From IMG/VR virus record IMGVR_UViG_2778261231_000013: 9,255 bases of DNA; one strand, 5' to 3'. Made by a program: the position numbers and the translations under genes. Origin of the DNA: a virus. Taxonomy: Duplodnaviria; Heunggongvirae; Uroviricota; Caudoviricetes. Positions 1,411 through 9,255 of the stretch are shown in pieces. Below the pieces are notes generated by a model. The model was not told where the DNA came from. It did not search any database and saw nothing but the letters and a program-made list of their open reading frames with translations. How positions within the stretch are numbered: the first letter of the stretch is position 1; every line of letters starts with the position of its first letter.

Positions 1411-1477
1411 ATCAACCCCTTCATCATGATGGGGTACATCGTCGCCACGCGCGCGCGCATGAACAACGCCCCGTCAT

Positions 1478-1495
1478 TGTTGCAGGTTGCTGACA
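1478..1495. promoter_or_regulatory. Candidate Ogr-responsive late-promoter operator (TGT-N12-ACA dyad) in the divergent D/FI intergenic region
   Basis: The sequence TGTtgcaggttgctgACA at 1478-1495 matches the TGT-N12-ACA dyad described for P2/P4 late promoters (normally centred near -55). Its centre is about 81 bp upstream of the FI ATG; a weak -10-like GATATT lies at 1533-1538. No experimental support is available from sequence alone. Confidence 0.5.
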
Positions 1496-1567
1496 ACCCT
1501 TATCCATCGCATCGGCCCGCCATTGCCGCAATGATATTCGCAGTCATTAAACTGGCGAGGCAAATAC

Positions 1568-2761
1568 ATGGCCACTAACTACCATCACGGTGTTACCGTC
1601 ACGGAAACCACCGACCTTAGCACGATGATCACCGACATTGATTCGGCGGTGATCGGCGTTGTCTGCACCGCTGATGATGCGGACGAAACAGCGTTCCCGC
1701 TGGATACCCCTGTACTGATTACCCGCGTGGCTAACATGCTGGGCAAGGCAGGTAAAACCGGCACCCTGTTTACCACCCTGAAAGCGATTTCAGACCAGAC
1801 CAGCCCGCAAACCATTGTGATCCGCGTTGCTGATGCTGCAAATATCAAACCGCCAGAAGGCGGCACCGCACAGACTCAGGATCAACTGGTTATTGGCGGC
1901 ACCGATGCAAACGGGCGCTTTACCGGCATGTACGCGCTGCTGTCTGCCGAAATGCGCGTAGGTGTGCGCCCGCGTGTACTGGCTGTTCCTGGGCTTGATA
2001 CGGAAGCGGTAGCCGCACAACTCGGCGTCATTGCCGAAAAGCTGCGCGCGTTTGCTTACGTGGCAGCGAACGGCTGCAACACAATCGCCGAAGTGAAGGT
2101 ATACCGCGAGCAATTCTCCCAGCGTGAAATGATGGTTATCTGGCCTAATTTCATCTGCTACGACACCAACGCCGGGGCTAATGCCACCGTGCCCGTGGGT
2201 GCCCATGCTGTTGGGATGCGCGCCAAAATCGACGCAACGCAGGGCTGGCATAAAACCATTTCCAACGTGCCCGTTAATAACGTGCTGGGGATGGATCGGG
2301 ATATCTATTTCACGTTGCAGGGCACCGATACCGACGCCGACGAACTGAACGCAGCAGGTGTTACCACGCTGATCAAGCAGGACGGCTACCGCATCTGGGG
2401 ATCACGTACCTGCGACGCGGAAACGTATATCTTCGAAAGCTATACCCGAACCGCGCAGATTGTTGCGGATACCGTCGCCGAAGCCCATTTCGCCTATGTT
2501 GATAAACCGCTTACCCCGTCGCTGGTAAAGGACATTGTGGACGGCATCAATAAGAAGCTGACCTCATATGTGACGGCTGGCAAGCTGCTGGGCGCCCGCT
2601 GCTGGTATGACCCAGAACCGAATACCTCGGAAACTCTGCGCAATGGTCAACTGACCATTAAGTACAACTACACCCCTGTTCCACCGCTGGAAAATCTCAG
2701 CCTGGTACAGGAGTTCACCGACGAATATTTCGCTACGTTTTCCAGCGCAGTGAATAACTAA
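1568..2761 (+). CDS. gpFI: Contractile tail sheath protein (P2 gpFI-like)
   Basis: 397-aa ORF, the size of P2 FI, with an N-terminal ...YHHGV... segment as I recall for P2-type sheath proteins. GAGG 7 nt upstream of the ATG. Followed 12 nt later by the tail tube gene, as in P2. Confidence 0.9.
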   Translation: MATNYHHGVTVTETTDLSTMITDIDSAVIGVVCTADDADETAFPLDTPVLITRVANMLGKAGKTGTLFTTLKAISDQTSPQTIVIRVADAANIKPPEGGTAQTQDQLVIGGTDANGRFTGMYALLSAEMRVGVRPRVLAVPGLDTEAVAAQLGVIAEKLRAFAYVAANGCNTIAEVKVYREQFSQREMMVIWPNFICYDTNAGANATVPVGAHAVGMRAKIDATQGWHKTISNVPVNNVLGMDRDIYFTLQGTDTDADELNAAGVTTLIKQDGYRIWGSRTCDAETYIFESYTRTAQIVADTVAEAHFAYVDKPLTPSLVKDIVDGINKKLTSYVTAGKLLGARCWYDPEPNTSETLRNGQLTIKYNYTPVPPLENLSLVQEFTDEYFATFSSAVNN

Positions 2762-2773
2762 CCGGGGGCGCTT

Positions 2774-3289
2774 ATGGCACTGCCTAAGAAACTCAAATAT
2801 TTCAATATGTTCTTTGACGGGGATAACTACTTCGGCATGGTGCCGGAAATCACCCCCGCCAAACTCACCAAAAAAACGGAAGACTACCAGGCGGGTGGTA
2901 TGCCGGGTTCGGTTGCGGTGGATCTTGGCTTCGACGCTGGCGCCCTGGATATGGATATCACGCTTGGCGGTCTGGATGCCGGATTGCTGAAAAAATGGGG
3001 CGTTACCACTGCGGACGGGATGCAAACACGTTTTGCTGGCTCCTATCAGGACGACGCAACCGGCGACGCTGTACCGTGCGAAATCCAGACGCGTGGCCGC
3101 TTCACTGAACTGGATCCCGGTTCGGCAAAAGTCGGGGATGACACTTCGCATAAGTACACCCTGAAAAACACCTATTACAAGCTGACCATCAACGGCGAAG
3201 AGATCATCGAAGTTGATGTGCTCAACATGATCTACAAAGTTGCCGGTGTGGATGTGCTGGAAAAACACCGCGCTAACATCGGCCTATAA
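2774..3289 (+). CDS. gpFII: Tail tube protein (P2 gpFII-like)
   Basis: 171-aa ORF starting MALPKKLKYFNMF and ending ...RANIGL, colinear with my recollection of P2 FII (about 172 aa). Lies immediately after the sheath gene. Confidence 0.9.
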   Translation: MALPKKLKYFNMFFDGDNYFGMVPEITPAKLTKKTEDYQAGGMPGSVAVDLGFDAGALDMDITLGGLDAGLLKKWGVTTADGMQTRFAGSYQDDATGDAVPCEIQTRGRFTELDPGSAKVGDDTSHKYTLKNTYYKLTINGEEIIEVDVLNMIYKVAGVDVLEKHRANIGL

Positions 3290-3303
3290 GGAAACCCGGC
3301 ACC

Positions 3304-3639
3304 ATGAGCAAGACCAAAGAAAACACCGTTATTCTTACCGCCCCTATTACGCGCGGTAAGACCAAAATCACCGAAGTGGCGATCACTTCCGTGCTTAAAC
3401 AGGCTGGATCACTGCGCGGCTTAAAAGCCTATGACGTGCTGACTTCCAACTATGACGCGCTGGTTATTCTGCTGCCCCGCGTTACCGCTCCGGCACTAAC
3501 CGCCGATGAGATTGCCCGTATGGATACTTGGGATTTTTGCCAGCTAGCCAACGCGGTGGTTGATTTTTTGCAACCCTCTTCGGATCTGACCGCGACGGAT
3601 ACGGGCAACGAATCATCCGATGCCCCTGCGAACGCATAG
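3304..3639 (+). CDS. gpE: Tail assembly chaperone (P2 gpE-like), zero-frame product
   Basis: 111-aa ORF between the tube and tape-measure genes, the position of P2 E. AAGGAAA upstream of the ATG. Contains the T_TTT_TTG slippery heptamer at 3564-3570. Confidence 0.8.
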   Translation: MSKTKENTVILTAPITRGKTKITEVAITSVLKQAGSLRGLKAYDVLTSNYDALVILLPRVTAPALTADEIARMDTWDFCQLANAVVDFLQPSSDLTATDTGNESSDAPANA

Positions 3640-3764
3640 AAGACCTGATGGCAGATATCGCCGTCATATTCCACTGGCGGCCGGTAGAGATGGACGCCAT
3701 GACGGTACAGGAAATACTGTTATGGCGTGATCAGGCGGCTGCGCGCAGTGGTGGAGATAACTAA
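3304..3764 (+). CDS. gpE+E': Tail assembly chaperone E+E' fusion made by programmed -1 ribosomal frameshift (predicted, about 153 aa)
   Basis: After slippage on T_TTT_TTG (3564-3570) the -1 frame is open for 64 codons (ATLFGSDRDGYGQRIIRCPCERIEDLMADIAVIFHWRPVEMDAMTVQEILLWRDQAAARSGGDN) and ends at TAA 3762-3764, which abuts the T start at 3765. This fills an otherwise unexplained 125-bp gap and mirrors the P2 E/E' arrangement. Confidence 0.7.
3564..3570 (+). other. -1 programmed frameshift slippery heptamer T_TTT_TTG
   Basis: Zero-frame codons GAT-TTT-TTG (D-F-L) give the X_XXY_YYZ pattern with X=T, Y=T, Z=G, the heptamer reported for P2 E/E'. Confidence 0.7.
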
Positions 3765-6692
3765 ATGGCAGACCGCAATTTAAATATCAGGGTGGCATTC
3801 AGCGCCCTGAATAATATGTCCCGCCCTGTCAACGCGGCGCGCCAGAGTGCCGCCGCGTTGGCGTCTCAAATCAACCAGACTAAAACCAGCATTAAAGGGC
3901 TTGAGCGTCAGGCAACCAGCTTTGACCGCCTCACCGCAGCCAATAAAAAAACCACCGAACAACTGGCCCAGGCGAAAGAACAGGCCCGGCAAATGGCGGC
4001 GGCTTATGGCCCGTTACGCCAGCGCAGCGCCGAACAGGTTGCCGCCCTCAATCAGCAACGTGCAGCCATTCGCCAGTTAACCCAGCAGCAGAAAGGCGAG
4101 CAGACGCAGCTTAACCAGTTGCGGGCCAGCTTCTACAGCGAAGGCATTGCGATCAGCAGCGCCAGCCGGGCGACGGAACAGATCAACCAGCGCACCGCGC
4201 AATACAACCGCCAGCTTGCCGAACAGCAGCGACGGCTTGACGCTGTTAACCAGGCGCAGGCCCGTTACAGCCGCGCCAAAGAAACCGGCGAAAAGATGAT
4301 GAGCGGGGGGATGAAAAGCGCCGCAGTAGGGGCGGCAACCCTAGCACCTGTCGCCGCTGCGGTTAAATCCTACAGCAGCCTTGAAGACGCCATGAAAGGC
4401 GTAGCCAAACAGGTAAACGGCTTGCGTGACGACAGCGGCAACCGCACCCCGCAATATGAAGAAATGCAGCGGGCGATCATGGATGCCAGCGAAAAGCTGC
4501 CAATGGCAAACGGTGCTGTTGACTATGCCGCACTGGTCGAAGGCGGCGCACGTATGGGCGTAGCAAACATCGATGATCCGTGGGAAAAACAAAAAGCCGA
4601 TCTGCTGTCTTTCGCCAGCATGGCGGCAAAGGCTTCTGTTGCCTTTGAACTTCCCGCCGACCAGCTTTCTGAAAGTCTCGGTAAGATTGCCGGGCTGTAT
4701 AAAATCCCTACCCAGAATATTGAACAGTTAGGCGACGCCATAAACTACCTGGACGATAACGCGAAGTCGAAAGGCTCCGATATTATCGACGTGCTCCAGC
4801 GCGTTGGCGGACTTGCCAGCCAACTGGATTACAAGCAAGCCGCCGCGCTGGGTTCCACCTTTCTGACGCTCGGCACCCCTGCCGAAGTTGCCGCCAGCGC
4901 CACCAATGCAATGGTGCGCGAACTCTCAATCGCTACGGTTCAGGGCAAAAACTTTATGCAGGGTCTGGACGCCCTCGGCCTCAGCGCCGAAAAAGTTCAG
5001 AAGAGCATGTCAGTGGACGCGATGGGCACAATCATTTCAGTGCTGGAAGCGTCCAAAAAACTGGCCCCGGATCAGCAGGTAGCCAACCTTACCCAGATTT
5101 TCGGCAAAGAGTTCGGCGATGATGCGCAGAAACTTGCGAACAATCTGCCCGAACTACGCCGCCAGATAGAACTGACGCAGGGCGCAGCCGCTAAAGGATC
5201 CATGAATCGGGAATCGGATATCAACAAAGCTTCCCTTTCTGCTCAGTGGCAACTGACCAAAACCGGCGCGGTTAACGCATTCAGTTCAGCAGGGGAAACG
5301 CTCCGCGAACCGCTGATGGATATCATGCTTACTGTCAGTAAGGTGGTTGGCAGCGTCCGCCGCTGGGTTGAGGCAAACCCGGCGTTGGTTGGTTCAATCA
5401 TGAAAGTCACCGCAGCCATAGGCGCGTTGCTGGTTGTCGTGGGCGGTCTGATGCTGTCCATTGGTGCGGTACTCGGCCCAATGGCACTTGTTCGCCTCAG
5501 CTTCACCACGTTGGCCGGGGAAGGAGGAATAGCGCGGCTGACTGGCGGCGTAATGCGCCTGGGTGGTGCGTTCCAGTGGCTTGCTGGCTCGCCTATGCAG
5601 GCATTGTTAAGCGCCGGTCGCATGGTATTCGGCCCGCTTATCACGCTACTGGCTGGCATTTCTGCGCCCGTCTGGGGGCTGATTGCTCTCTTTTCTGCGG
5701 CAGCTGTGGCCGTCATTAAATTCTGGCAACCGATTAAGGCATTTTTCAGCGGGTTCTTTACCGGGCTGATGGCTGGCCTTCAACCTATCACGCAGGCATT
5801 TAACGCCGTATTTGCACCGCTGGCCCCGATTTTTGACAGTATCGGCAACGCGATCAGCGGCGTCTGGGAGTGGTTTACCAAACTGCTGGAACCGATCCAG
5901 TTTTCCAGCGAAGCGCTGGCATCCTGTACCAGTGCAGGGGAAACATTCGGCAAGGTGGTAGGGGGTGCAATCAGCGCGCTGACTCTTCCCATTCAGTCCG
6001 TAGCCAAAGGGCTGGGCTGGATTCTGGAAAAGCTTGGCGCCATTCCCGACGCAGCGAAAGCAGCGCAGCAGGTTGCGCAGCAAATGACGCCGGAAGCGGT
6101 CAACAATCTGGCAGACCGGGTTAACGCCTTTTCCGGTGACGTGCAGGCAGTCGCGAAGGAAAGCAAAAAAGCCGAAGAGAAAAAGAAAACCGATGAGCAG
6201 AAGAAACAGGACAACCTGATTAACTCGCTCAAAGGCCCGGCCAACATCGTGCCGAAGATGAGCAGTAGCTTGGACAAAATCGCCACCAATACCACGGAGA
6301 AGAAAGACGGCCCCGGCGAAATTGTCTTCAAGAATAAGCAGCCCTATATCCCGATCCGTGGCGGATATTCGGAACCTCTTAAGCAGGCACAGCGCCAGCT
6401 ACCATCCCTTACCGATTGGGTGACGCAGCAGGCCGGATCGCTGATCGCTTCCGTTACCCCCTGGCAGGTTGAGAAGCCCGCCGCCCGGGTGCCCGTTTCG
6501 GCGTCGCCGTCTGCGGCCTCCGTCGCTGCGCTGATGCCTGCACCGGGTGGCGATGTATATAACCTTAACTTCGACTTTAGCGGCCAGAAACTGGATGAAG
6601 AAACCATTATCAGGCGCGTGCGCGAAGAACTTGCGTTAGCGAAGCAGCAGGCCGACCGGCGCAAGCGTTCCCAACTGACCGATCACGTCTAA
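3765..6692 (+). CDS. gpT: Tail tape measure protein (P2 gpT-like)
   Basis: 975-aa ORF in the position of P2 T. Q/A-rich coiled-coil-like N-terminal third, central hydrophobic segments (for example ALVGSIMKVTAAIGALLVVVGGLMLSIGAVLGPMALV), and a charged K/E-rich patch, all typical of tape measure proteins. Confidence 0.9.
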   Translation: MADRNLNIRVAFSALNNMSRPVNAARQSAAALASQINQTKTSIKGLERQATSFDRLTAANKKTTEQLAQAKEQARQMAAAYGPLRQRSAEQVAALNQQRAAIRQLTQQQKGEQTQLNQLRASFYSEGIAISSASRATEQINQRTAQYNRQLAEQQRRLDAVNQAQARYSRAKETGEKMMSGGMKSAAVGAATLAPVAAAVKSYSSLEDAMKGVAKQVNGLRDDSGNRTPQYEEMQRAIMDASEKLPMANGAVDYAALVEGGARMGVANIDDPWEKQKADLLSFASMAAKASVAFELPADQLSESLGKIAGLYKIPTQNIEQLGDAINYLDDNAKSKGSDIIDVLQRVGGLASQLDYKQAAALGSTFLTLGTPAEVAASATNAMVRELSIATVQGKNFMQGLDALGLSAEKVQKSMSVDAMGTIISVLEASKKLAPDQQVANLTQIFGKEFGDDAQKLANNLPELRRQIELTQGAAAKGSMNRESDINKASLSAQWQLTKTGAVNAFSSAGETLREPLMDIMLTVSKVVGSVRRWVEANPALVGSIMKVTAAIGALLVVVGGLMLSIGAVLGPMALVRLSFTTLAGEGGIARLTGGVMRLGGAFQWLAGSPMQALLSAGRMVFGPLITLLAGISAPVWGLIALFSAAAVAVIKFWQPIKAFFSGFFTGLMAGLQPITQAFNAVFAPLAPIFDSIGNAISGVWEWFTKLLEPIQFSSEALASCTSAGETFGKVVGGAISALTLPIQSVAKGLGWILEKLGAIPDAAKAAQQVAQQMTPEAVNNLADRVNAFSGDVQAVAKESKKAEEKKKTDEQKKQDNLINSLKGPANIVPKMSSSLDKIATNTTEKKDGPGEIVFKNKQPYIPIRGGYSEPLKQAQRQLPSLTDWVTQQAGSLIASVTPWQVEKPAARVPVSASPSAASVAALMPAPGGDVYNLNFDFSGQKLDEETIIRRVREELALAKQQADRRKRSQLTDHV

Positions 6693-6702
6693 GGGCAATA
6701 TC

Positions 6703-7152
6703 ATGATGATGATTCTGGGGATGTTCCCCTTTTCACTGCAAACCACGCCTTACCAGAGTGCGAATAAAACCAACTCCTGGCGGCACGTCAAAAACGATCG
6801 CGTGGGGAAATCCCCGCGCTATCAGTTCATCGGCGCAGATGAAGAACCGTTCGTACTCAGCGGCACGCTGTACCCCGAAATAAGCGGCGGTGATGTGTCG
6901 CTTGTCATGCTGGAAACTATGGCTTTTTCCGGGCGCCCGTGGCCCCTGATAGAAGGCACGGGCAGGATCTACGGCATGTATGTCATTGAGCAGATCACGC
7001 AAAACCGGACGGAATTTTTTAAGGACGGGAAGGCAAAGAAAATTGATTTTACGCTCAACCTGAAACGGGTAAGCGAGGACATACGGGAAAAGCTGGCTGA
7101 AACAACTACCGACGATCTCTTCTCTCTGGTGAAAACCAACCTTTCGATATAA
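6703..7152 (+). CDS. gpU: Tail protein U (P2 gpU-like)
   Basis: 149-aa ORF starting MMMILGMF, with SWRH, VGK and TGG motifs matching my recollection of P2 gpU (which also starts MMM). Lies directly after T. AAGGG 7 nt upstream of the ATG. Confidence 0.85.
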   Translation: MMMILGMFPFSLQTTPYQSANKTNSWRHVKNDRVGKSPRYQFIGADEEPFVLSGTLYPEISGGDVSLVMLETMAFSGRPWPLIEGTGRIYGMYVIEQITQNRTEFFKDGKAKKIDFTLNLKRVSEDIREKLAETTTDDLFSLVKTNLSI

Positions 7153-7155
7153 GAA

Positions 7156-7175
7156 AAGCGGGCCTTTGCCCGCTT
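7156..7175. terminator. GC-rich hairpin between convergent U and invertase genes (candidate bidirectional intrinsic terminator)
   Basis: AAGCGGGC (7156-7163), loop CTTT, GCCCGCTT (7168-7175) form a perfect 8-bp stem. An A-rich run precedes it on the plus strand, which gives a U-rich tail for minus-strand transcripts; the plus-strand tail (CGTCTTCC) is less U-rich. Confidence 0.5.
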
Positions 7176-7258
7176 CGTCTTCCGGAACACACCGCCATAA
7201 CTGACCGTGCTACAGCACCGTTAAAAATGACTGTACTCGATACGCACGGCCAGCACGG

Positions 7259-7840
7259 TTAGAACCAGCCATGCGTGCCGGAATCCTTATTCCTGGTCGC
7301 AGGGAATTTTTTGTAAAGCGTAGATATCCCAACATCGTAAATTATAGCAACCCTCCGGCGAGATTCTCCTGCCGCTATTAATCTACCCGCCTGCGCCCAT
7401 TGTTCTGGTGTTAGTTTTGGTCGTCTACCTCCGATCCTTCCCTGCGCGCGAGCGGCCACCAGTCCTGCACGCGTACGCTCGACAATCAATTCTCTCTCCA
7501 TCTCTGCCAGTGCCCCCATAACATGAAAAAAGAAACGCCCCATTGGCGTTGATGTATCAATACTGTCAGTCAAGCTGCGGAAGTTCACGGAACGTTGCTT
7601 TAGCTCCTCCACGAGAATTACCAAGTTCCGCATACTCCGCCCAAGACGATCCAGCTTCCAGACAACAAGCGAGTCTCCTGGAGAAAGGCGCTTTAGTAAT
7701 TTTTTAAGCCCTGGCCTTTCCGCTGTTCTCCCGCTCATTTTATCTTCAAAAATTAGCTCACATCCTGACCGCTCAAGCGCATCACGTTGCAAAGCCGTGT
7801 TCTGGTCATTTGTTGATACGCGCACATACCCAATAAACAT
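7259..7840 (-). CDS. Site-specific DNA invertase, serine recombinase of the Din family (Gin/Pin/Cin/Hin-like)
   Basis: 193-aa ORF with N-terminus MFIGYVRVSTNDQ carrying the catalytic serine, then conserved blocks LVVWKLDRLGRSM, FRSLTDSIDTSTPMGRFFFHVMGALAEMERELIVERT and a C-terminal helix-turn-helix (VAIIYDVGISTLYKKF). It is near-colinear with my recollection of Pin (e14) and Gin (Mu). Confidence 0.95.
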   Translation of the reverse strand: MFIGYVRVSTNDQNTALQRDALERSGCELIFEDKMSGRTAERPGLKKLLKRLSPGDSLVVWKLDRLGRSMRNLVILVEELKQRSVNFRSLTDSIDTSTPMGRFFFHVMGALAEMERELIVERTRAGLVAARAQGRIGGRRPKLTPEQWAQAGRLIAAGESRRRVAIIYDVGISTLYKKFPATRNKDSGTHGWF

Positions 7841-7894
7841 AGTTTTTCATTCCGTTAAAACGATAAATCATGCCATTCGCATAAAAATTATGCA

Positions 7895-7920
7895 TTTTCC
7901 AAAACGTTGGTTTGGGGGAA
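7895..7920. other. Candidate 26-bp invertase crossover site (hix/gix/cix-like)
   Basis: TTTTCCAAAACG-TT-GGTTTGGGGGAA: two imperfect inverted 12-bp half-sites around a central TT dinucleotide. It resembles the Din-family consensus half-site TTATC(C/A)AAAACC (about 9-10 of 12 matches per half). It lies 55 bp upstream of the invertase start, where such sites sit next to gin/pin/cin. Confidence 0.6.
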
Positions 7921-8259
7921 GCGGCCAAATTGCCTGCGATTAGTGGCTCTTTATCATCATCTGGCTGGATAAAAATCCCTGTTATAGAGGGGGAGTCTTT
8001 TATTATCCAATGGGGAAGAATCGGACCTTCTGATAGTAAAACTGGTGTTGCAACAGGAAGTTATCCTATTGCTTTTCCAAATTCTGCATTTATGGCATTT
8101 ATTGCTGAAAAAACCGCAGTATCCACAGGCCCAATAGGTATTAATTCCTGGGGAGTGTCCGAACTAACAAAAACAGAATTAAAGGCCATTTGTGCTGCAA
8201 GGACTATATCAACTTCAGCCGCAACTGAAATAGGTGATTTTCTGGTACTGGGATATTGA
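7912..8259 (+). CDS. Start-less tail-fibre C-terminal variable cassette (silent alternative receptor-binding end; no ATG start of its own)
   Basis: The ORF track starts it at a TTG, but the frame is open from 7885 across the crossover site. Its stop TGA (8257-8259) is followed by a tfa gene, the usual fibre-then-assembly order. It has no promoter or constant N-terminal fibre part in this orientation. Markedly AT-rich. Confidence 0.5.
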   Translation: MGEAAKLPAISGSLSSSGWIKIPVIEGESFIIQWGRIGPSDSKTGVATGSYPIAFPNSAFMAFIAEKTAVSTGPIGINSWGVSELTKTELKAICAARTISTSAATEIGDFLVLGY

Positions 8260-8279: not shown

Positions 8280-8729
8280 ATGTCGAGCATAATATACTAC
8301 AGCTCTATAAATAATGCATTTTACCCTGAGCATTTGAAACAAGAATATATTAAATCTAATTCTTTTCCAGCAGATGCAAAACCCGTTAAATATTCTGTTT
8401 TCGAAGAATTTGCACTTAAACCAGCACCAGAAGGAAAATACAGATGCGTTGGTGAAGATGGAATGCCATCATGGGCAGATATTCCACCACCAACACATGA
8501 GGAACAGATTGCCGCAGCCGAATTGAAAAAGCAGCAATTGATTAACCAGGTCAACGAATACATGAACAGTAAACAATGGCCCGGTAAAGCGGCTATTGGT
8601 CGTCTGAAAGGTGAGGAACTGGCGCAATATAATCTGTGGCTGGATTACCTGGACGCACTGGAAATGGTCGATACTTCCAGTGCTCCAGATATTGAATGGC
8701 CTACGCCTCCGGCAGTTCAGGCCAGATGA
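8280..8729 (+). CDS. tfa: Tail fibre assembly protein (Tfa family; Mu U / lambda Tfa-like)
   Basis: ATG at 8280 preceded by AGGA (8270-8273); I prefer this to the upstream in-frame TTG at 8256. The C-terminus ...VDTSSAPDIEWPTPP matches the conserved Tfa C-terminal motif (compare TfaE ...VDTSTAPDIEWP, from memory). Confidence 0.8.
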   Translation: MSSIIYYSSINNAFYPEHLKQEYIKSNSFPADAKPVKYSVFEEFALKPAPEGKYRCVGEDGMPSWADIPPPTHEEQIAAAELKKQQLINQVNEYMNSKQWPGKAAIGRLKGEELAQYNLWLDYLDALEMVDTSSAPDIEWPTPPAVQAR

Positions 8730-9255
8730 CATCTGGCGCGGTGCTGGTATCAGTTGCCGTCACCGCGTCAATGTAATCCAGCACAGCGTTAAGGCGGGTT
8801 GTTTCTGCCTGCGTCAGCTTCCGCCCGGCCTGTAATTTCAGTTGAATCAGACTAATGGAAGCCATTGCAGTATCCATCAGCGACTGGCGCTGTGCTTCTG
8901 CTGCGTCTACTGCGGCGCTATGCTGTGCCTCAGTATCGGTCACCCATTTCTCACCATCCCATTTATCGTATGGCGTTAATGGGGCGATAGTGGTTGTATT
9001 TTCAGGGTAATCACCCGGAGCGGTGATTTCTTTTGATTCTCCTGTTTTGGTGCTATAGACCGTTTCACCGCGATGGTCTGGCACATATTCCCATGAGTTA
9101 AAATCTGCAGAACGGCAGATTGCATAACCAGCCTTATGTGTGCCAGGGGCATCTAAACAGGAACATGCCGGAATGCCGACACCAACGGCAAGATATTCAT
9201 TTGAAGTGGAAATATATTCCCGAGTTTCACCATCATAGCTATAGACGGTAATATT
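8701..9255 (-). CDS. tfa: Second tail fibre assembly protein (Tfa family), 5'-truncated by the window edge
   Basis: The minus-strand frame is open from the window edge to the stop at 8701-8703. Translation (...FNSWEYVPDHRGETVY...KWDGEKWVTDTEA...TDTSTAPDVIWPELPEA) is colinear with my recollection of e14 TfaE. The ORF track's 8701..9084 reflects only the first in-window alternative start (GTG); no ATG/GTG/TTG exists upstream in frame, so the real N-terminus lies past 9255. Confidence 0.8.
   Translation of the reverse strand, partial: NITVYSYDGETREYISTSNEYLAVGVGIPACSCLDAPGTHKAGYAICRSADFNSWEYVPDHRGETVYSTKTGESKEITAPGDYPENTTTIAPLTPYDKWDGEKWVTDTEAQHSAAVDAAEAQRQSLMDTAMASISLIQLKLQAGRKLTQAETTRLNAVLDYIDAVTATDTSTAPDVIWPELPEA

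Follow-up and report, generated by a model that had tools for sequence, protein, structure and literature searches.

A crossover site for a Gin/Pin-type DNA invertase at the edge of a silent tail-fibre cassette in a P2-like prophage of Escherichia coli, with a candidate invertase promoter beside it

A short palindromic sequence that lies between a DNA invertase gene and an open reading frame lacking an ATG raises two questions: whether it is a crossover site at which that reading frame is exchanged onto a tail fibre, and how the invertase is transcribed from the short leader that the sequence borders. We address both for a 9,255-nucleotide stretch of DNA (the window), which is the tail region of a P2-like E. 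coli prophage. Read as its reverse complement, it matches the final 9255 nt of contig NNZM01000022.1 (assembly GCA_002545375.1), so that base 9255 is the contig end and lies inside the invertible segment described below. In the DNA beyond the prophage, the E. coli genes fieF-pfkA-sbp are found at 100% identity. The left end of the window carries ogr (1-243) and gpD (292-1410) on the minus strand, followed on the plus strand by the genes for sheath FI (1568-2761), tube FII (2774-3289), gpE (3304-3639), the tape measure protein (3765-6692), and gpU (6703-7152). The right end holds the invertase gene (7259-7840, minus strand), a silent tail-fibre C-terminal cassette (7885-8259, plus strand) with its own tail fibre assembly (chaperone) gene (8280-8729, plus strand; Pfam Caudo_TAP, 1.5e-35), and the 3' part of a second tail fibre assembly gene (8701 to beyond 9255, minus strand; Caudo_TAP, 2.4e-33), which belongs to the other, currently expressed-side set. 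For comparison, we used E. coli genomes collected by DNA similarity, 73 loci from other species with a related invertase, and 8 contigs with an identical invertase protein.

The arrangement of the tail genes deserves a separate description. The FI-FII-E-T-U tail block (1411-7258) is on the strand opposite to gpD/ogr and to fibre gene H and the invertase gene, so that it converges on the latter. This order is common to the relatives L001, L028, and L080-L087; E. coli F467 (L002) has the canonical P2 order. We considered the block from FI to U as an invertible unit in its own right and rejected this, given that it is without flanking crossover-like sites; the inverted-strand block looks like a fixed feature of the lineage. 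Located 5' of the sheath gene is a dyad of the form TGT-N12-ACA (TGTTGCAGGTTGCTGACA, 1479-1496), which we take to resemble the Ogr-dependent late promoters of P2. Between the gpU stop and the invertase stop lies a G+C-rich hairpin (7155-7176), terminator-like on the minus strand, with 9 pairs (6 of the 9 being G-C); it is likely the invertase terminator and possibly bidirectional.

The sites of Hin, Gin, and Cin are 26-bp imperfect palindromes with AAACC..GGTTT arms around a 2-bp core, and the sequence at 7895-7920 fits this description. A scan of the window with the degenerate Hin/Gin/Cin consensus, allowing up to 3 mismatches, returned 7895-7920 as its single match (1 mismatch; 0.01 matches expected by chance), and the one mismatch is also present in the element e14. 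On the plus strand the site reads TTTTCCAAAACGTTGGTTTGGGGGAA, that is TTTTCCAAAACG TT GGTTTGGGGGAA, with an outer half at 7895-7906, the central TT at 7907-7908, and an inner half at 7909-7920. It is the invertase-proximal site and corresponds to gixR of Mu. The invertase ATG occupies 7840-7838 on the minus strand; the spacer 7841-7894 is therefore 54 nt long, and the nearest base of the site is the 55th upstream of the ATG. The first-pass annotation had placed a 26-bp crossover site of a serine DNA invertase at 7895-7920, 55 bp upstream of the invertase ATG: its coordinates are all correct on direct reading, and the type of site agrees with the sole consensus match in the window and with the intact invertase that adjoins it. 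The distance from site to ATG is identical in Mu, e14, and about 25 other loci. Sister prophages with a 100% identical invertase match the window base for base between the core and the ATG, leader included, and on the inner side they diverge at the core or within a few bases of it.

Some further sequences in this part of the window resemble pieces of such a site or recur elsewhere. The last codons of gpU contain AAACCAACCTTT (7133-7144), which resembles the centre of a crossover site and is inverted relative to the real one; when tried as a second site, it proved to have poor flanking half-sites, and the resemblance is probably due to chance. Just right of the gpU terminator hairpin lies CGTCTTCCGGAA (7176-7187), which resembles an outer half-site and is followed by about 75 nt homologous to the long site-to-ATG leaders (108-116 nt) of a different class of invertase modules (L028, L004, L020, and L026). 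This stretch (7176-7250, plus strand) is directed at the invertase gene's 3' end and has a left flank that does not resemble a site; it seems to be the decayed remains of an earlier module or rearrangement. The 48 nt after the invertase stop (7213-7262) are repeated at 85-90% identity elsewhere in such prophages, in the same orientation after the lysozyme gene (L001, 14802-14850; L080, 3251-3298), and could be a terminator or promoter element.

The adjoining gene encodes a 193-aa serine DNA invertase with a Pfam Resolvase domain (residues 3-135, 5.7e-50) and an HTH_7 domain (residues 138-181, 3.9e-13). Its ORF is intact and has the catalytic Ser9 in MFIGYVRVSTNDQ. By these protein features it belongs to the Din family (Gin/Cin/Pin/Hin), and the closest characterised protein among the phage matches listed is P1 Cin, with 79% identity (tblastn). 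In the Gin and Cin systems, a Fis-binding recombinational enhancer lies in cis in roughly the first 100 bp of the invertase gene. The 5' end of the gene in the window also contains a putative recombinational enhancer: positions +19 to +90 (7822-7751, minus strand) are identical at 60 of 72 bases to the enhancer annotated at +19 to +90 of P1 cin, and they include two 15-mers of the form G-N13-C, 49 bp apart. Because the region is also coding, this identity is not independent evidence, and we count it as homology only; on that footing, 7751-7822 is probably a Fis-dependent recombinational enhancer.

If 7895-7920 is a crossover site within a fibre gene, the reading frame of the cassette should run through it. 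We found that the plus-strand frame is open from 7885 to 8259 without a stop, beginning KLCIFQNVGLGEAAKLPAISG... and reading ...IFQNVGLGEAAKLPAISG..., with a TAA (7882-7884) just outside, in agreement with the first-pass annotation, which had described the frame as open from 7885 straight through the site. No meaning attaches to the three codons upstream of the site (7885-7894) as such; the relevant point is that no stop interrupts the frame on the inward side of the core, and the exchangeable part of the cassette is 7909-8259. The cassette has no ATG, and the TTG at 7912, which lies inside the site, has no ribosome-binding site. The short ORF that would start there (7912-8259) matches Pfam Gp53-like_C (2e-9). 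We then read every site in the frame that puts the core at codon positions 2-3. In this frame the sites encode N(L/V)GLG(E/D/T), except at one decayed locus and in one poor match to the pattern, and the core falls at codon positions 2-3 at almost every site, in expressed and silent copies alike, including those of Mu, P1, and e14. Upstream of the distal copy there are 97-355 open codons, which are the constant part of the fibre; the invertase-proximal copy has 1-56 open codons upstream and usually about 100-250 downstream. The site in the window has 7 open codons upstream and 117 downstream.

A protein search with the cassette recovered both its silent and its expressed forms. The silent form is a protein of 130 aa (P0001, ...FINVGLGEAAKLPAISG...). 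Four further proteins carry the same cassette in frame behind four different constant parts of fibres, with the junction exactly at the peptide that the site encodes: ...ALTNLGLGEAAK... in P0004, ...ALENLGLGEAAK... in P0005, ...LLTYLGLGEAAK... in P0006, and ...VLDYLGLGEAAK... in P0007, all of the form ...N/Y-L|GLGEAAKLPAISG.... At the junction, the V of the silent form (codon GTT) becomes L (CTT) once the cassette is joined to a constant part, a change that recombination at the core predicts. A model junction in which the constant part of the sister L081, through the TT, is followed by window positions 7909-8259 stays in frame and gives a fibre of 319 aa. The earlier proposal that recombination at the central TT fuses this cassette in frame to a constant fibre part is supported by the phase of the sites, by the four database fusions of the same cassette, and by this translation of the junction after inversion. 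The rest of the segment is laid out accordingly, with the Gp53-like_C cassette (plus strand), a Caudo_TAP gene (plus strand), and a Caudo_TAP gene on the minus strand, the two chaperone genes being convergent as in the Mu G and e14 P segments. The window thereby holds one of the alternative tips of a tail-fibre segment, and the second cassette lies off the contig.

We searched for the partner site and found none in the window at up to 3 mismatches, where an inverted-repeat search returned only short chance pairs, and none on contig NNZM01000022.1, because the contig stops inside the invertible segment. The identity of the core dinucleotides can consequently be demonstrated only in sister and related genomes. 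A pair of sites is present in about 30 related loci, Mu and e14 among them, and in every locus where we located both sites, one core is the reverse complement of the other (TT/AA or TC/GA). Inverted pairs with identical core dinucleotides occur in L080-L082, which have the identical invertase, in F467, and in the other two-site loci. In the sister prophages with an identical invertase, the distal site reads TTCTCAAAAACC TT GGTTT(G/A)GGAGAT and lies inside fibre gene H, and we expect the partner of the window's site to be TTCTCAAAAACC TT GGTTTGGGAGAA or similar. E. coli F467 carries the segment of the window itself, at 99.6% identity over 1365 nt, with the partner inside H. We considered whether L080 and L081 represent one segment in opposite orientations; their cassettes are related and not identical, and so the pair gives no proof of this. 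L086 was also tried as a carrier of the flipped window segment and was rejected because its 11 nt of flank are mismatched. The sister L083, which has the identical invertase and an intact leader, encodes a fibre of 640 aa, and we recognised no crossover sites at this locus, where the switch has seemingly been lost or replaced.

Contig ends cluster at this position. Among the 73 related loci, 19 contigs end within about 200 nt upstream of the invertase start, as do those of L086 and L087, and about a dozen start inside the 26-bp site itself. L086 and L087, both of which encode the identical invertase, have contigs whose first base lies 11 nt ahead of the site or 5 nt ahead of its core. Breaks at the site are expected if the reads hold both orientations, and they could also be explained by repeated fibre genes in several prophages.

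Comparison with characterised switches shows which of them the window resembles. The Hin/hix system of Salmonella uses the same invertase family, a 26-bp site with a 2-bp core, and a Fis/enhancer mechanism; it differs in that hin lies inside the invertible segment and in that inversion moves a promoter and does not swap coding ends. As in the window, the G segment of Mu has its invertase gene on the outside and pointing away from the segment; its proximal site is 54 nt upstream of the start codon, TGGCATGAT stands at the same offset in the gin leader, and the fibre frame passes through the site with the core at codon positions 2-3 (QNLGL), with convergent chaperone genes in the segment. Mu differs in that its two sites are identical, with a GA/TC core, and encode GLQE (QNLGLQE at both gix), whereas the window has an AA/TT core and an outer half-site beside the invertase that starts with CG, not GG; moreover, the window's host phage is P2-like, and its Gp53-like_C cassette has about 117 aa, compared with about 320 codons for Sv in Mu. 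The P segment of e14 (PinE, stfP/stfE) shares these particulars with the window, having a proximal site of TTCTCCCAAACC AA CGTTTATGAAAA with an AA core and a CG outer half, a 54-nt pinE leader containing TGGCATCAT, and an N(L/V)GLGE junction, and its invertase is about 84% identical to that of the window. However, e14 is a defective lambdoid element of E. coli K-12 in which stfE is a pseudogene and the cassette sequences are others. Inversion of the e14 segment at the same repeat has been shown experimentally (PMC12529663).

The C segment of P1 and P7 is similar in having the related Cin, an enhancer in the 5' end of the gene, and a frame that passes through the site as LNLGL. It differs in that cin reads towards the segment, with cixL at its 3' end, and in that the cin leader is unrelated and has no site nearby. 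According to the P1 record (AF234172), cin spans 31660-32220 and its 3' end is overlapped by cixL (32215-32234); the promoters predicted for it, P1cin and P2cin, are at 31538-31621, about 600 bp from cixL. P1 is therefore no precedent for an overlap of site and promoter, and the first-pass annotation erred in citing cin/cix as a known case. The precedents to cite are Mu gin/gixR and e14 pinE, both of which have the 54-nt leader.

This leader (7841-7894, minus strand) is homologous to those of Mu gin and e14 pinE, and its length is fixed in most relatives in which a site adjoins the gene. When we aligned 41 leaders from many genera, Mu included, the sole strongly conserved block was TGGCAnnnT: the C, the A, and the final T are invariant (41 of 41), and T-G-G are present in at least 39. 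As in the expression modules of Mu gin and e14 pinE, the block lies 26 nt before the invertase start in the window, and the site 54 nt before it. Matched to a sigma-70 promoter of the extended -10 class, the conserved positions are its TG, -11 A, and -7 T. The window's copy of the block is TGGCATGAT (7867-7875), with the TG at 7875-7874 and the hexamer CATGAT at 7872-7867; it is the top-scoring promoter candidate on the minus strand of the window, although a standard sigma-70 scan returned no minus-strand promoter in the leader. The hexamer at the -35 position, ATGCAT (7890-7895), is 17 nt from the -10 and consists of the last base of the site (7895) and the next five bases. It matches the consensus at 2-3 of 6 positions, which is weak. 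In 27 of 29 site-adjacent leaders, TG comes first after the site, corresponding to the TG of TTGACA, and the T of TGGCA stands exactly 19 nt past the site; the sequence between site and block is poorly conserved and only its length is fixed. Where the site is further away (by 22 nt in L013 and L021, and in a Pantoea/Mixta group), the block retains its distance from the ATG, so it is a signal for expression of the gene and not part of the site. A sigma-54 reading of TGGCA was rejected, given that the -12 GC is absent in the window, in L001-L003, and in others, and that the invariant T (hexamer position 6) would go unexplained.

Judged from this pattern of conservation, the invertase is most likely read from a weak extended -10 promoter, TG-n-CATGAT at 7875-7867, with transcription predicted to start near 7861-7859 and a 5' UTR of about 20 nt. 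With only 54 nt between site and ATG, a promoter or 5' UTR must abut the site, as the first-pass annotation had argued; the overlap that it offered as the other option does not extend, in the best model, beyond 1 bp of the -35 hexamer, and the core promoter would lie almost wholly outside the site. The promoter of gin is reported to touch IR-R.

Other readings of the leader account for some of these observations. The invertase might instead be transcribed from upstream, whether from a start within the segment or through read-through from the late fibre operon, and the 54-nt leader would then contain no invertase promoter; the 5' UTR would include the site, and TGGCAnnnT would function as an RNA element or a protein-binding one. 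The minus strand does carry H and the expressed chaperone gene as well as the invertase gene, a single weak terminator-like site (8128-8114) separates H from the invertase, and the GCAU of the block can pair with the start codon in both single-sequence and alignment folds. However, the alignment fold reaches -0.54 kcal/mol, with 3 compensatory changes against 4 broken pairs, the fold of the leader alone (z = -1.6) is no better than that of shuffled sequences, and no Rfam family was found in the window, and we therefore rejected a conserved RNA structure in the leader. That the invariant positions are exactly those of an extended -10, and that the distance from block to ATG is fixed even in the two loci with the displaced site, also argue against transcription from upstream, which we regard as unlikely. 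Still less likely, in our judgement, is the stronger form of the first-pass proposal, a promoter that overlaps the site fully, with a -10 of CATAAT (7892-7887) or GAAAAT (7899-7894) and a -35 within the inner half-site, in which case bound invertase would occlude the promoter and the -35 would vary with orientation. CATAAT in the window matches the consensus at 5 of 6 positions, but it is not conserved, being seen only in the window, L001, and L034, and the -35 matches at 2 of 6; GAnAAT across the outer end of the site is common in relatives, and invertase binding already accounts for conservation there.

The segment itself may also be read in other ways. The site and cassette could be real by descent and belong to a segment that no longer inverts, for instance because the partner has been lost or has decayed; the partner was not assembled with the window, L083 has the same invertase and is without recognisable sites, and a decayed half-site is present at 7176-7187. 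We think such a frozen relic improbable, to much the same degree as transcription from upstream, since the invertase ORF is intact with Ser9 present, the site is one position off the consensus and shares that difference with e14, and the contig breaks inside the segment, with two other same-invertase assemblies breaking at the site. RefSeq annotates relatives of 7912-8259 as 'gp53-like domain-containing protein', with ORFs of 99-130 aa, as though this were a free-standing gene and not a silent cassette. Such a gene would have as its sole start the TTG inside the site, unaccompanied by a ribosome-binding site, and longer fibres end in the same sequence, with the LGLGE that the site encodes lying exactly at the join; this reading is very improbable.

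We consider it likely that the window contains the invertase-proximal end of a Gin/Pin-type invertible tail-fibre segment, with an extended -10 promoter abutting the site, and that it works as follows, by analogy with the family. A dimer of the 193-aa serine invertase would bind the site at 7895-7920, and a second dimer would bind the inverted partner site in fibre gene H, about 1.8 kb rightward and beyond the contig end. The Fis-bound enhancer in the 5' end of the invertase gene would promote synapsis of the two sites, staggered cuts 2 nt apart would open each at the central TT, and the intervening segment would be turned over, presumably also in this strain. Because the core fills codon positions 2-3 of N-L-G-L-G-E in the silent cassette as well as in the expressed gene, inversion would join the constant part of H in frame to 7909-8259. 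It would also place the chaperone gene at 8280-8729 in the transcribed orientation, and the swapped cassette would change the receptor-binding tip of the fibre.

The geometry also bears on regulation. Invertase bound at the site would cover approximately -60 to -35 of the proposed promoter, which makes autoregulation of the invertase plausible. Orientation-dependent expression of the invertase is unlikely, because an inversion would leave everything downstream of about -47 unchanged and would exchange one inner half-site for another that is almost the same. Whatever the orientation, some transcripts could also arrive by late read-through, since H and the invertase gene share a strand. We also considered whether the rigid geometry, with exactly 19 nt from the end of the site to TGGCA, is under selection and not a chance inheritance across the approximately 27 diverged modules that show it (from Mu, from e14, and from the P2-like prophages of many enterobacterial genera), such that occupancy of the proximal site by the invertase would be coupled to invertase transcription. 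We put this forward tentatively, as a possibility that we hold to be doubtful.

Overall, the system is real, well understood, and ordinary, belonging to the tail-fibre switches of the Mu-Gin/e14-Pin type, and its significance beyond annotation is small. For annotation, a short 'gp53-like' ORF that neighbours a 'recombinase family protein' gene in a P2-like prophage is a silent fibre tip and not a gene of its own, draft assemblies very often break at or within such sites and segments, and predictions of phage host range must count both cassettes. The conserved spacing between site and promoter in Gin/Pin modules also supplies a concrete promoter model for autoregulation of the invertase, a question to which we found no answer in the accessible literature. 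If the proposed coupling is true, it would amount to autorepression or to a transcription-dependent control of synapsis, and would be a general feedback that sets switching rates.
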